A DNA stretch of 5,194 nucleotides from a virus. Taxonomy: Duplodnaviria; Heunggongvirae; Uroviricota; Caudoviricetes. The stretch is taken from positions 1 through 5,194 of the IMG/VR virus record IMGVR_UViG_2778261249_000009. The stretch is one strand, 5' to 3'. Positions 1 to 4,782 of the stretch are shown here, piece by piece. Every line of letters begins with the position of its first letter. Position 1 is the first letter of the stretch. Position numbers and translations under genes: made by a program. Below the pieces are notes generated by a model, which saw only the letters and a program-made list of their open reading frames with translations, had not been told where the DNA came from and ran no database searches.

Positions 1-192
1 TCAGGAGCATTTCTGATTAACGCCACCGTTAAGAATCCACCCTTCAACAGCTTCACGAAGGTATGATTTGGGGTGGGTTCTGACTGGCTTCGGAAATCCG
101 TGCCGTTTGGTATAGTTCCAGATTGTCTGACGTGATGAAACACCGAGCTTGTTCATCACTTCTTTCTCAGGAATCAGGCTGGTATCGGTCAT
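1..192 (-). CDS. xis: AlpA-family helix-turn-helix excisionase / phage transcriptional regulator (63 aa), complete
   Basis: ATG at 192-190 preceded by GGAG 7 nt upstream (minus strand); TGA stop at 3-1. Sequence LGVSSRQTIWNYTKRHGFPKPV...EAVEGWI matches the AlpA/excisionase pattern (HTH, conserved FPKP and W near the C-terminus). An integrase would be expected beyond position 1. Confidence 0.7.
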   Translation of the reverse strand: MTDTSLIPEKEVMNKLGVSSRQTIWNYTKRHGFPKPVRTHPKSYLREAVEGWILNGGVNQKCS

Positions 193-206
193 CTTAATTC
201 TCCAGG

Positions 207-233
207 CAAAAAGAAACCGCCATCAGGCGGCTT
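207..233 (-). terminator. Rho-independent terminator (minus strand)
   Basis: Minus strand reads AAG-CCGCC-TGAT-GGCGG-TTT followed by CTTTTTG: GC-rich 5 bp core stem (217-221 / 226-230), extendable to 8 bp, 4-nt loop, then U-tract 207-216. Sits between the small ORF stop and the xis RBS. Confidence 0.5.
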
Positions 234-390
234 GGTGTTCTTTCAGTTCTTCAATTCGAATATTGGTTACGTCTGCATGTGCTATCTGCGCCCACAGCAT
301 CCAGTGGTCATAGCAGTCGCTGATGTTCTCGGCTTCGATAACTCTGTTGAATGGTTCTCCATTCCATTCACCTGTGACTCGGAAGTGCAT
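223..390 (-). CDS. Hypothetical small protein, 55 aa (MHFRVTGEWNGEPFNRVIEAENISDCYDHWMLWAQIAHADVTNIRIEELKEHQAA); below the ORF-track length cutoff
   Basis: Hand-translated: ATG at 390-388 with GGAG 7 nt upstream; TGA stop at 225-223 falls in the loop of the downstream terminator hairpin. Protein-like composition (3 Trp, 4 His). No family recognised. Confidence 0.3.
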   Translation of the reverse strand: MHFRVTGEWNGEPFNRVIEAENISDCYDHWMLWAQIAHADVTNIRIEELKEHQAA

Positions 391-400
391 TTATCATCTC

Positions 401-428
401 CATAAAACAAAACTCGCCGTAGCGAGTT
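401..428 (-). terminator. Rho-independent terminator (minus strand) downstream of the DUF551 gene
   Basis: Perfect inverted repeat AACTCGC (411-417) / GCGAGTT (422-428) with 4-nt loop; on the minus strand the hairpin is followed by TTTTGTTTTAT (complement of 401-410). Confidence 0.45.
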
Positions 429-490
429 CAGATAAAAGAAATCCCCGCGAGTTCGAGGATTGTTATTCACCTTTGACGGCAAGTTGCAGG

Positions 491-1696
491 TTAGCCACGG
501 TTAACCTCCTGCGGCGGTTCTGGTAGTGGCATCCAGTGGGTTACACCGCCAATTGGTTCATCGTCGTCGTACTCCAATGCGGCTATATAGAACCCGTCAC
601 GACGAGAATAAGAAATCCCGGACATTACAATGCCATCCGAAACAACAATAATGTCACCCGTTTCTTCCGGCATTCGCTCACTACAGCTTATCCAACCATC
701 CGGAGTTACCGGAGTTGGTCCATCGAATTCGGGCATGTCAGGACCTTTTCTGATAGCTTTAGCCAGCTCCAGCGGGTCATCGTAAAGCCAGTCGCCAGTT
801 TGTGGGTGATTTGCTTCTGCAAGCTGCGCAGCCCATTCAAGACCATCTTTTTGACCTTGGAGATAATCAAGCGGCAACTCTTCATGATTACTTACAGGTT
901 GGCTACCCTGAAGCATGGCAGCGTGGCAGGCATACTCAACACCCTTAACTGCATCTGCGCAGTAGTTATAGCGATTGCATTCCACTAATTTCCGTTTGAG
1001 TTTTTCAATTGCCTGCGCGACATCAGCCTGTATTACAGGAACTGGCGGAACGGCTGTTTGCTCTCGAACGTCATTAGTCGCTATCGGTTCTGCTGCCAAC
1101 TGACTGGCATATTTGTTAATGGTAACGATAAGCTCTTGCTCAGCCTCATCCAGACAATCACCGATACCTCGCCTGTCACCGTCAAAATCATCGAAATCGG
1201 CACGAATCTTGGCAACCTTCAGGATTGCGGACAACACCTCACTAGGAATTACCGGATAGTTGGTTGACGTTTCCGCGATTTCCCGAAAATTATTGGTTGA
1301 CGAATTCTTATTTTCCCGAAAGTTTCCGGACTGAAGCATGGCGGCGCGGCAGGCGTTCCAGCCTCTTACCTCTGCAATAGCGGCAACCGCATCAACCGCG
1401 TACATGCTAAGAGGATTAGGAATTGGTTTTTCTTCCGGTACTACTGGCGCTGGAGGGGCGGCGTAAATGCCCTCTATCACTAAATGTTTGCGCTCAAAAT
1501 CATCTGGCTCTCGATGATATACGTAACTCCAGTCACCAAGGTTATCATTGCGCCTGCAACGGAAACCTATCGGCTCTGCTTCCAGCGATGCCAGCGCAAT
1601 TTCATAAGCCCGGCGTTCAATATTGTCTCGAACGTCCAGGCTGCTGATACGCTCTTTGATTTCTTTAATCAGTTCTTTGTCGGTGAAAGTGGTCAT
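491..1696 (-). CDS. DUF551 domain-containing phage protein (401 aa)
   Basis: Track ORF 491..1777 begins at a TTG. The preferred start is ATG 1696-1694 with AAGGAG 7 nt upstream, 1 nt after the upstream gene stop (TGATATG). C-terminus ...DGWISCSERMPEETGDIIVVSDG...GFYIAALEYDDDEPIGGVTHWMPLPEPP matches the DUF551 signature (THWMPLP) seen at C-termini of enterobacterial prophage proteins. Internal repeats noted separately. Confidence 0.75.
   Translation of the reverse strand: MTTFTDKELIKEIKERISSLDVRDNIERRAYEIALASLEAEPIGFRCRRNDNLGDWSYVYHREPDDFERKHLVIEGIYAAPPAPVVPEEKPIPNPLSMYAVDAVAAIAEVRGWNACRAAMLQSGNFRENKNSSTNNFREIAETSTNYPVIPSEVLSAILKVAKIRADFDDFDGDRRGIGDCLDEAEQELIVTINKYASQLAAEPIATNDVREQTAVPPVPVIQADVAQAIEKLKRKLVECNRYNYCADAVKGVEYACHAAMLQGSQPVSNHEELPLDYLQGQKDGLEWAAQLAEANHPQTGDWLYDDPLELAKAIRKGPDMPEFDGPTPVTPDGWISCSERMPEETGDIIVVSDGIVMSGISYSRRDGFYIAALEYDDDEPIGGVTHWMPLPEPPQEVNRG
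1260..1325. repeat. Tandem imperfect 33-bp direct repeat (2 units, about 25/33 identical) inside the DUF551 CDS
   Basis: Units 1260-1292 and 1293-1325 both begin TTGGTTGACG and contain TTTCCCGAAA; they encode NFRENKNSSTN / NFREIAETSTN on the minus strand. Confidence 0.6.
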
Positions 1697-1697
1697 A

Positions 1698-2309
1698 TCA
1701 CTCTCCTTTAATGCGAATGCCAGCGGCGCGTGGCACATTAACTTCCACGATGCGCACAGTTGGTTTGTACATCTCAATCGCTGTCAGCCAGTCAGCTCCT
1801 GTCATGCGCTTTTCCGCATCGCCATTAGTCCACTGAACCGGTACACCAATAGCCTTCATAGCGATTTCTATTTCCCCGGCAATGGCGCTTTTTCCGCAAC
1901 CAGTAAAACCAGATACAACGACCAGAACTTCACCTTTGGCTGGTTTTATTTCCCGCGCTTCCAGTTCAGCAATGCGCTTACTCCCATCCCAGATAACGCC
2001 CTCGTAATACTCACGCTGCTCGTTGAGTTTTGATTTTGCCAACTCCAGTTGTTTTGTTAGTTCCGCAATACGGCAAACATCGTTGATACGCGTTTCCTCT
2101 AATGCGTTGATCTCATCCAGTAGTGCCAGCACGGTTTCTGGTCCGGCCAGAAATTTGAAGGCGTTGAGGGCATCAATATCAACACCGCTATCTTTAAGTT
2201 CCTGTTCGCTTATCAGATCATCATCAACTGGCAACATTAACAGGCGTTCCATTGCCGGAATTGCACGCTCTGCCGCCTCACGCAGTGCCTGGTAATTAAT
2301 TTCGCTCAC
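1698..2309 (-). CDS. Ead/Ea22-like coiled-coil prophage protein (203 aa with GTG start; possibly shorter)
   Basis: Track ORF 1698..2501 is over-extended through the Lar gene. GTG at 2309-2307 has GGAGG 6 nt upstream and overlaps only the last 14 nt of lar; alternative ATG at 2252. N-terminus SEINYQALREAAERA followed by a heptad-rich coiled-coil segment resembles Ea22-like proteins as I recall them (unverified). The C-terminal segment VVVSGFTGCGKSAIAGEIEIAMKAIGV is unassigned. Confidence 0.55.
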   Translation of the reverse strand: MSEINYQALREAAERAIPAMERLLMLPVDDDLISEQELKDSGVDIDALNAFKFLAGPETVLALLDEINALEETRINDVCRIAELTKQLELAKSKLNEQREYYEGVIWDGSKRIAELEAREIKPAKGEVLVVVSGFTGCGKSAIAGEIEIAMKAIGVPVQWTNGDAEKRMTGADWLTAIEMYKPTVRIVEVNVPRAAGIRIKGE

Positions 2310-2529
2310 TGGTTGCCTCCTTTGCTCGCTGATTCCACTCAGCTCTAACCTCTGAATAAAAAATCGCGCAGTCATTTCCAGGCGCTGCATATTTGCTACC
2401 AGATTGAGCGCGACACGTACCGCATCGAACGAAATAGAATCTACCGCCAGAGCCATATTCAGGGTGATCTGCTTCACTGGCAACGTGCGCTGCGCCGCCA
2501 CAGAATGGACATGGTAGTAGGTTGCTCAT
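2296..2529 (-). CDS. lar: Lar-family restriction alleviation protein (77 aa, CxxC...CxxC zinc ribbon)
   Basis: ATG 2529-2527 with AAAGGAG 8 nt upstream; ATGA overlap with the upstream gene stop (2526-2529). CPFCGG at residues 7-12 and CGTC at 36-39, the Lar/RalR-family signature; stop TAA 2298-2296. Confidence 0.7.
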   Translation of the reverse strand: MSNLLPCPFCGGAAHVASEADHPEYGSGGRFYFVRCGTCRAQSGSKYAAPGNDCAIFYSEVRAEWNQRAKEATSERN

Positions 2530-3197: not shown

Positions 3198-3494
3198 TCA
3201 GTCATTACTGATAGCGCCATAGCGTGAGCGGTAATTACGCAGGCGCGGGTCGATATATTCAGGGAAGTGGGTATATGTGGCTTTGCGGAATGGTCGGATT
3301 GATGTCTGGTAAATTCGCTCGCGTTCTTCTTTCTCTGCAAGCCATACGCAGTGGCGAAATTCCTTTTCCTCTTTTGTTTCCTGCGGTAGCGACATTATCC
3401 GGTCGTAGTTTTTCCTGAATTTATCCAGCACCTCCGATACGGAATTGCCGGAACAGCGGCGCGGGTCATCCGCACCATACAGAGGCGCTGGCAT
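3198..3494 (-). CDS. Hypothetical protein, 98 aa
   Basis: ATG 3494-3492, 23 nt after the SSB-like gene stop, with a weak TAAGG upstream; fills the gap in the operon. No family recognised. Confidence 0.5.
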
Positions 3495-3517: not shown

Positions 3518-4105
3518 TCAGAAAGGAGGGTAATCGTTCTGGCTGTAACCATAATCATCTGCATGATTCTGGCTTACGTTTTTAGAGCGATTGTCTTTAT
3601 CTTTGAGGCTGGCAACCATGTTGGCGATAGTTTCTGGTTGCTTGCCTTCCGCCTTTTCTTTAAGGGTTTGACCTGTTTGTGCAATAAACGGGATGCGTAT
3701 TTCCATCTGGTAGCTGTCTGCGCCAGTCTTTTTGTTTGTGGTTAATACTTTCTGGAGCACTAACCCGATTTTCTTTCCATGAAACTCAGGAGCAACAAAT
3801 TTACTGGCGGAAACCATATGTTGCGTTAATTGTCCAATCCCGGCACACCCCATCATGGCGTGAACGACATTTGCGCCAAATTTGTTTTCCGTTCCGTCAT
3901 TTTTCTGAACACAGACGCTAAGATATTGGATTTTACGTCCGTCGTCAGATTCGCCAGAAAACTCAATAAATTTGGCTCCTTTTTCTGATTGCTTTAGTTC
4001 TGCTTCAGTAATGGTAATGATATGAGCACCAGTTTCGTTAATAAAACCACCTTGCCCTGCGGTCAGTGCTGCTTCTTCGTTATAAGTAAAAATCACGTTG
4101 CTCAT
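3518..4105 (-). CDS. Putative phage ssDNA-binding (SSB-like) protein partnered with the Sak4-like ATPase (195 aa)
   Basis: ATG 4105-4103 in ATGA overlap with the Sak4-like gene stop; TAAGGA RBS. Acidic C-terminal tail ending ...HADDYGYSQNDYPPF resembles the SSB C-terminal tip (acidic residues + terminal PF). Position immediately downstream of a Sak4-like ATPase matches the known Sak4 + cognate SSB arrangement (e.g. phage HK620). The OB fold is not verifiable by eye. Confidence 0.45.
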   Translation of the reverse strand: MSNVIFTYNEEAALTAGQGGFINETGAHIITITEAELKQSEKGAKFIEFSGESDDGRKIQYLSVCVQKNDGTENKFGANVVHAMMGCAGIGQLTQHMVSASKFVAPEFHGKKIGLVLQKVLTTNKKTGADSYQMEIRIPFIAQTGQTLKEKAEGKQPETIANMVASLKDKDNRSKNVSQNHADDYGYSQNDYPPF

Positions 4106-4782
4106 GCGGCGTTTTCCTTAATTTGATGAACATTATTGATGCCGTAGTAATCACAAACAGTGGCATCGACGAAAGAGAGATCGTTATCAATCTCATTAGA
4201 ATCAAACATTCCCATTGGGGATTTAACAGTGTCTGCACCGTTGTTTTTCGTGGTGAAAAAGAACTGGTCATCGCGGGTAAGGGTGCGAAGAACTATAGTA
4301 AACATGCCTTCGACAGTGATTTTCTCGTCCAGCATTTTGCCGATAGTCTTCATTTTCACACGCCCCATAGGGGTTTCTTCGGTGTGCGCAAGAAAATAGA
4401 CTCTCAGGTCATCAGGTGCATCCTGTGCAGCCTTAATCACCTCCCATGCGTGGCGGCCTATCTCAGTGAATTTATCAAACGATTTTTCTTCTGAGCGGCG
4501 CATAAACTCATTGCTCATCACATACTGGAAGTCATCAACAATAACGATTCTTTTCCCGTATTCGTGAGCACGCTTAATTACGGCAACTATTACGTCCCAT
4601 TTGTCAGTGGTAACTACGGTTCCTTTTTTTGCTCTGGCATCCCATGCCAGCCAGTCTTTTGATTTAAATGGAAGCGGCTTGCCTATTGGTTTTATAAGTA
4701 TTGCTTCCTCTGGATTGATATTTCTCATGCTGGTTGATTTTCCGGTGCCAGATTCACCGAGTATTAATGTCGCAGTTCCCAT
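4102..4782 (-). CDS. Sak4-like RecA-fold P-loop ATPase (AAA_24-type, putative single-strand annealing protein), 226 aa
   Basis: ATG 4782-4780 with GAGG 6 nt upstream. Walker A GESGTGKST at residues 9-17 and Walker B-like IVIVDD near residue 80; size and N-terminal P-loop placement fit short phage Sak4/AAA_24 proteins. Confidence 0.7.
   Translation of the reverse strand: MGTATLILGESGTGKSTSMRNINPEEAILIKPIGKPLPFKSKDWLAWDARAKKGTVVTTDKWDVIVAVIKRAHEYGKRIVIVDDFQYVMSNEFMRRSEEKSFDKFTEIGRHAWEVIKAAQDAPDDLRVYFLAHTEETPMGRVKMKTIGKMLDEKITVEGMFTIVLRTLTRDDQFFFTTKNNGADTVKSPMGMFDSNEIDNDLSFVDATVCDYYGINNVHQIKENAA

Follow-up and report, generated by a model that had tools for sequence, protein, structure and literature searches.

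The stretch of DNA analysed here (5,194 nucleotides; hereafter, the window) is the early-left accessory region of a P22-like or lambdoid prophage, in which every gene lies on the minus strand (Table 1). The closest phage match was Escherichia phage APC_JM3.2 (Lederbergvirus), which covered only 62% of the window in six pieces. The window contained 15 terminator-like sites (5.5 expected). A strong terminator-like hairpin with a T-run (GCCGCC-TGAT-GGCGG; 214-233, minus strand) follows the 55-aa ORF, and the 100 nt that separate the DUF551 gene from the next ORF contain two adjoining terminator-like hairpins with GAACTCGC in common (410-461, minus strand). In APC_JM3.2, the first position is held by an ASCH-domain gene. 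In the Ead/Ea22-like ORF, PF13935 covers aa 2-117, and the C-terminal part contains a Walker-A-like GFTGCGKS and a weak APS-kinase match that lies below the cut-off (aa 128-165, E=0.0037). This ORF may encode a small P-loop domain fused to a coiled coil.

Table 1. Genes, domains, repeats and islands of the window (aa, residues of the DUF551-gene product; gene nt, nucleotides of the DUF551 gene).
Feature	Position	Strand	Evidence
AlpA/Xis-like gene (xis/AlpA)	1-192	-	
55-aa ORF	223-390	-	
DUF551-family ('EaA'-type) mosaic gene, 401 aa	491-1696	-	ORF and translation, Pfam
DUF551 domain (Pfam PF04448), aa 334-396	509-697	-	55.9 bits vs cut-off 22, E=7.8e-15
Island at DUF551 start, PVTPDGWISCSERMP, gene nt 983-1031	666-714	-	Identity profile, phage matches
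Repeat copy 2, GCCTGCCACGCTGCCATGCTTCAG (ACHAAMLQ), aa 256-263	908-931	-	Repeat search
Cassette between repeats, aa 123-255: NFRE linker, helical module B, Pro-rich linker, helical module C	932-1330	-	Comparison with L071
NFRE tandem unit 2, NFREIAETSTN, aa 136-146	1259-1291	-	Repeat search, shuffles
NFRE tandem unit 1, NFRENKNSSTN, aa 125-135	1292-1324	-	Repeat search, shuffles
Repeat copy 1, GCCTGCCGCGCCGCCATGCTTCAG (ACRAAMLQ), aa 115-122	1331-1354	-	Repeat search
33-nt island, GGCTGGAAC plus motif (GWNACRAAMLQ), aa 112-122; proposed recombination joint, end of helix 100-123	1331-1363	-	Column identity, phage matches
Pro-rich linker island YAAPPAPVVPEEKP, aa 78-91	1424-1465	-	Identity profile; V86 and P87 invariant
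Island IALASLEAEP, aa 33-42; another mosaic joint	1571-1600	-	Identity profile; many matches begin at gene nt 96
Gene-boundary joint AAAGGAGAGTGATATG (16-mer): Ead/Ea22-like stop, RBS, DUF551-gene start	1694-1709	-	
Ead/Ea22-like gene	1698-2309	-	Pfam PF13935 match
Lar-like gene	2296-2529	-	
ORF without assigned identity	2526-3044	-	
Abc2 anti-RecBCD gene	3198-3494	-	
DUF669-type SSB gene	3518-4105	-	
Sak4-like ATPase gene	4102-4782	-	

The 401-aa product of the DUF551 gene is identical to a protein annotated in E. coli. Its DUF551 match spans positions 1-68 of the 68-position profile with a score above the gathering threshold, which places the protein in the DUF551 family. Both copies of a 24-nt direct repeat lie outside this domain. 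The part of the protein that bears the repeated motif had no match in Pfam, NCBIfam, PADLOC or PDB sequences, and PHROGs matches were only to families without an assigned function.

The direct repeat had been reported in the initial annotation, and we reproduced its coordinates (908-931 and 1331-1354), identity, reading frame and translations. The copies are identical at 22 of 24 positions (92%), are spaced 423 nt apart and are both in codon phase 0, whereas the best 24-nt direct repeat in codon shuffles of the gene (n=300) reached 19 of 24. Note that the copy at 1331-1354 is the first in coding-strand order and that the NFRE units start two codons after it, which corrects the original wording. 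The DNA likeness between the copies stops exactly at 24 nt, and the adjoining codons on both sides agree at chance level, so that no similarity extends beyond the motif. When the ~130-aa segments around each copy were aligned with each other by BLASTP (E=5e-4), the motif itself carried the alignment. Because the similarity ends exactly at 24 nt, the duplicated domain that had been suggested is not supported; further, the motif is nearly always single in at least 118 other ORFs. Module C contains C240, C246, C257 and H258 (C-x5-C-x10-C-H; aa 240-258; 932-1033, minus strand), a possible metal-binding arrangement; module A lacks this arrangement.

To examine the occurrence of the motif elsewhere, IMG/VR contigs were scanned with a fully degenerate back-translated pattern that left codon choice free. 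The motif was found in at least 120 loci; the matches listed comprised 118 unique ORFs (35-408 aa) with 124 copies in total. A back-translated scan for IALASLEAEP likewise returned at least 120 loci. The viral-contig samples described below are thus anchored on the motif or on the IALASLEAEP island, and both counts refer to the matches listed. Nearly all ORFs with the motif had a single copy; among the matches listed, only L110 had two in the manner of the window gene, and L183 and L197 were other two-motif genes with a different cassette between the copies. The commonest DNA version, also among the matches listed, was exactly GCCTGCCGCGCCGCCATGCTTCAG (63 of 124 copies), and the rare Leu codon CTT was used in about 90% of all copies listed.

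Across 114 unique contexts among the matches listed, mean pairwise identity per column was 0.68-1.0 within the island and 0.25-0.33 in both flanks. In the same contexts it was 0.68-0.93 at the upstream TGGAAC, which lay outside the search pattern, and at the free third-codon positions. Since these positions are also conserved, the conserved unit is a DNA island of ~30-33 nt, GGCTGGAAC-GCCTGCCGCGCCGCCATGCTTCAG, that encodes GWNACRAAMLQ. The 33-nt island alone matched Enterobacter phages at 100%. Of 5,426 complete E. coli genomes, 697 contained it, with at most four copies per genome, and it also occurred on plasmids. An island of high identity therefore lies between unrelated flanks in many genomes, and it is nearly the same in hundreds of prophage genes of enterobacteria. 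The identity at synonymous sites could partly stem from the youth of the whole family rather than from repeated exchange.

Upstream of the motif there is usually a Pro-rich stretch (APPAPVVPEE) at a distance of 18-46 aa, with unrelated sequence beyond; the Pro-rich linker island of the window gene occupies this place, 18-46 aa before the motif, in most family members. Downstream, the continuations are unrelated to one another and include DUF551, a 'PDGWVMVPVEPT' domain, MazG/DUF550-like sequences, Cys-rich segments and others. Alternatively, the motif is followed by GKGE, GKGD or GGKS, a stop codon and the conserved RBS-ATG joint AAAGGAGAGTGATATG. An exact copy of this joint was present in 55 of 219 fetched loci, often as ...AAMLQGKGE* and then ATG. 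Because it directly follows ...AAMLQGKGE* in other phages, the same modules exist either fused or as separate genes. Some also match separate families: aa 1-123 correspond to phrog_5117, and aa 92-265 to phrog_14306 (177 aa).

Among the matches listed, clustering of the sequences next to the island gave 52 upstream and 43 downstream types of cassette, which occurred in 87 combinations, and five pairs of upstream clusters showed all four combinations, as in a four-gamete test. Further, the two polymorphic sites of motif 2, R/H and Q/H, occurred in all four combinations on one upstream cassette, indicating crossovers inside motif 2. Cassettes are thus reassorted at the island. The modular architecture proposed in the initial annotation is strongly borne out in the form of a cassette chain split by short conserved islands, with the two repeats among them. 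The window gene is a chain of four to five cassettes, two of whose modules end in the joint.

In L135, L065, the second ORF of L080, L127 and others, IALASLEAEP is joined straight to VSQTYKL..., a linker that normally comes after AMLQ-GAEP. This join suggests an exchange via the shared ...GAAGC-GAACCTGTAAGCCA stretch, which would have skipped the whole middle of the N-terminal module.

The NFRE pair, which had been reported as a 33-bp tandem repeat encoding NFRENKNSSTN/NFREIAETSTN beside the copy at 1331-1354, was also present and in frame. The repeat search returned 32-nt copies (1260-1291 and 1293-1324; 75% identical) with a spacing of 33 nt and in codon phase 0, and the 24/33 identity of the pair was reached by none of 300 codon shuffles. 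Tandem Repeats Finder missed the pair even at a minimum score of 30, because it has only two copies with 75% identity. Across homologues, most loci had two units, whereas L076 and L178 had a single one and differed in the unit kept; three units were looked for among the homologous loci and none was seen. NFRE is thus a coding tandem repeat of variable copy number (one or two units; unit identity only 75%). The E. coli matches stop at the 3' edge of NFRE unit 2 (gene nt 435), and other linkers stand at the same place in other genes (AQDCIAP x2; NAESRC...NAESRC). In L102, L057, L061, L004 and L118, a short repeat of these kinds, tandem or dispersed, or a PAQ-rich sequence often forms the linker that follows the joint. 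Such repeat linkers end nearly always in GNSPV(I/T)PDGW, and the NFRE units end in N(S/Y)PV(I/T)P; the units may be derived from a linker of the former type. We propose that the 33-nt NFRE pair would be one among several low-complexity repeat linkers after the joint, varying from one to two units.

When the best 120 homologues were compared with the window gene, the identity profile was a staircase with steps at short conserved islands (IALASLEAEP, YAAPPAPVVPEEKP, GWNACRAAMLQ, ACHAAMLQ, PDGWISCSERMP and HWMPLPEPP); identity fell from ~98% to ~73% just past repeat copy 2. Match ends were also collected from motif-independent searches against E. coli genomes and GenBank phages (40+60 matches listed). 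These ends lay at gene nt 96, 331-334, 365/366, 435, 648, 766, 789-794, 983/984, ~1030 and 1155, and at repeat copy 2 the phage matches ended at gene nt 789/791 or started at 766/794. Thus, breakpoints in unbiased searches coincided with the island among the matches listed. The PVTPDGWISCSERMP island matched alone in many phages (46-49 nt, 96-100%). Gene nt 766-823 matched at 90% to OR850331.1 ('Staphylococcus phage SA 1298 Kay', 1,719 nt); this record is probably enterobacterial DNA that was mislabelled or entered as a contaminant.

In L071, gene nt 96-365 (99.6% identity) directly abut gene nt 766-1196 (98.1%), and the 23-nt overlap between the two blocks is the repeat itself. L093 has the same arrangement, and both genes encode 263 aa, corresponding to the window gene minus exactly 423 nt, that is, the cassette at 932-1330 plus one repeat copy. 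We searched junction probes of 143-144 nt against the 5,426 complete E. coli genomes. Of these, 102 contained the deletion-type junction, where deletion denotes the arrangement and either the long or the short form may be older; the first junction of the window gene itself was found in 191 and the second in 55. The in-frame deletion variants anticipated in the initial annotation therefore exist, both as this exact form and as the one-unit NFRE linkers. Of the expansion variants anticipated alongside them none was seen, neither a third motif copy of the same lineage nor three NFRE units among homologues. Repeat copy number across homologues, which had been named as a check, varies between one and two for the NFRE units as well as for the motif.

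At the protein level, the N-terminal module that carries the motif (aa 1-125) had 812 relatives among 50%-identity cluster representatives and no Pfam family. In an alignment of 51 of these representatives, C116 and R117 were invariant, and G112, W113, N114, A115, A119, M120 and L121 were at least 90% conserved. The IALASLEAEP-anchored sample contained degenerate versions of the motif (GWNDCREAMLQ, GWNAYRAAMLQ, RRAAMLQG, SDAMLHG and GYNAAVLHG); at the amino-acid level, the core of the motif is thus more ancient and more widespread than the uniform DNA island. AlphaFold2 placed the motif of the N-terminal module in helix 100-123 with a pLDDT of ~80, in a model whose pTM was only 0.43. In the full-length model (pLDDT 46), both motifs lay in the second helix of a predicted helical pair, where pLDDT was below 50. 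On this basis, (G)WNACRAAMLQ would be the C-terminal helix end that closes a small N-terminal-type module, composed of a Pro-rich linker, ~20-35 variable residues and the motif. It would be followed by a Gly, Ser or Ala residue, after which the protein would either end at a stop codon or continue through a flexible linker into the next domain.

The results comprise the island, the reassortment of cassettes around it, breakpoints that coincide with the repeats and the exact deletion-type form. We consider it probable that the 24-nt repeats are two copies of one conserved joint and not remnants of a domain duplication. The motif is most likely a conserved helix end whose DNA lets phage recombinases swap, fuse or delete cassettes in frame. 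Selection on the protein would preserve the helix-end motif, and the GC-rich identity that this leaves, with a length of about the annealase minimum, would act as a crossover point. Each exchange would spread one DNA version of the island, so that the island would stay uniform and the next exchange would become easier. Crossovers at the island could reassort cassettes in frame, fuse neighbouring genes or delete the segment between two copies in one gene. In-frame reassortment could occur in this way because the stretch is close to the minimal perfect identity for single-strand-annealing recombinases; efficient pairing needs a segment of at least 23-27 bp with Red-beta and of at least 31-34 bp with RecA (PMC3945230). 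The operon of the DUF551 gene also encodes a Sak4-like ATPase, an SSB and Abc2 (anti-RecBCD). From these products we infer homologous recombination as the source of the junctions, in preference to illegitimate joining with later selection, and likewise the recombinase responsible.

If the repeats were instead the best-kept remnants of two homologous folds, internal duplication would explain why both ACxAAMLQ motifs are in frame and why a Pro-rich stretch and predicted helices precede each of them (H95-108/H113-122 and H219-241/H245-265), and the weak BLASTP alignment (E=5e-4) would fit. The alignment is carried by the motif, however, the codons beside the 24 nt are at chance level, and the predicted helices come from a full-length model of low confidence. 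Further, motif DNA that is 92% identical between unrelated flanks is unlike the uniform divergence that follows a duplication, and the motif is single in other ORFs (at least 118), with 52 unrelated upstream contexts among the matches listed. We regard this explanation as very improbable and as already largely refuted. A cis-acting nucleic-acid signal within the coding sequence, for instance a Chi-like hotspot, an RNA structure or a site bound by a protein, would account for the strong conservation at the DNA level, including synonymous sites, but the motif is always in one reading frame and its variation preserves the amino acids. The window contains no Chi octamer, and the RNA around either copy did not fold better than shuffled sequence (z = +0.31 and -0.68); accordingly, Chi and RNA structure were rejected, and a signal of this kind is hardly credible.

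The motif could also act purely at the protein level, as a binding, oligomerisation or processing site at a helix end, with the mosaic produced by illegitimate recombination and selection, the DNA identity a by-product and the repeats without a role in recombination. A protease site at LQ|G was also considered as a possible reading. The invariance of C-R and near-invariance of G-W-N-A..A-M-L across 50%-identity representatives, the degenerate protein versions with diverged DNA and the confidently predicted local helix are all consistent with this, and rare illegitimate joins could survive solely where a functional helix end was preserved. Against it, third-codon positions and the rare CTT are conserved far beyond the flanks, and the two blocks of L071 and L093 overlap by 23 nt, the mark of an exchange that took place inside the repeat. 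Moreover, the two variable sites in the motif occur in all four combinations on one background, and the adjacent linkers and the stop/RBS/ATG joint behave in the same way although they share no role at the protein level. A purely protein-level role is thus rather unlikely.

In a more far-reaching proposal, the 33-nt island and the linker and gene-boundary islands near it might form a selected in-frame 'universal adaptor', whose nucleotide sequence would be kept uniform so that annealases of the Sak4, Erf or Red-beta type can shuffle parts of early accessory proteins, namely N-terminal handles and C-terminal effector domains, among the several prophages of one cell. We give this extended proposal a fairly low probability. 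The proteins shuffled in this manner may have anti-defence roles, and the adaptor, if real, would be a system that diversifies an entire class of phage genes by recombination.

Whether phage mosaicism arises via homologous exchange at short conserved sequences or via random joining and selection is a long-standing question, for which this gene family is an unusually clean test case. It offers an in-frame island of 24-33 nt, unrelated flanks and dozens of cassette partners, and also a natural two-copy gene and an abundant exact deletion-type form, in an operon that encodes phage recombination proteins. Further, full-length similarity is a misleading basis for annotating or grouping 'DUF551' or 'EaA' proteins, because these proteins are chains of independently inherited cassettes.

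The idea of modular evolution in phages reportedly goes back to Botstein and Susskind, and the joint in the DUF551 gene is a clear and unusually clean new example of the known mosaicism of lambdoid phages. No mention of the motif string was found in the searchable literature. The early-left operon of lambdoid and P22-like phages is highly mosaic (PMC2629481), and the modules of these phages are exchanged through relaxed homologous recombination at short conserved sequences that mark their boundaries (PMC3945230, PMC2327257). The window shares with these boundaries the early-left setting and blocks of >90% identity that end at short shared sequences, and the length of the island is near the 23-27 bp pairing minimum of annealases. 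In contrast, the joint described here lies inside a gene, is kept in frame and doubles as a conserved protein motif; further, the sequences on both sides of it are unrelated, whereas those at the known boundaries are 60-80% diverged homologues.

The mosaic ea22 genes of lambda and Stx phages (PMC10834534) are similar in that a neighbouring gene has a shared N-terminal part, swapped C-terminal domains and a portable DUF551, and some records annotate island-carrying genes as Ea22. Unlike them, the N-terminal module of the window gene is not the Ead/Ea22 coiled coil, PF13935 matching the adjacent ORF instead, and the joint motif is not described in PMC10834534. A design of conserved motifs between hypervariable segments is also known from the gp38 adhesins and tail-fibre genes of T-even phages, in which the motifs are glycine-rich (PMC3157838). 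However, gp38 is a virion adhesin with another fold, whereas the DUF551-gene product is an early intracellular accessory protein. Further, the gp38 motifs form one structural core in a fixed order, whereas in the gene family described here domains, linkers and gene boundaries are exchanged.
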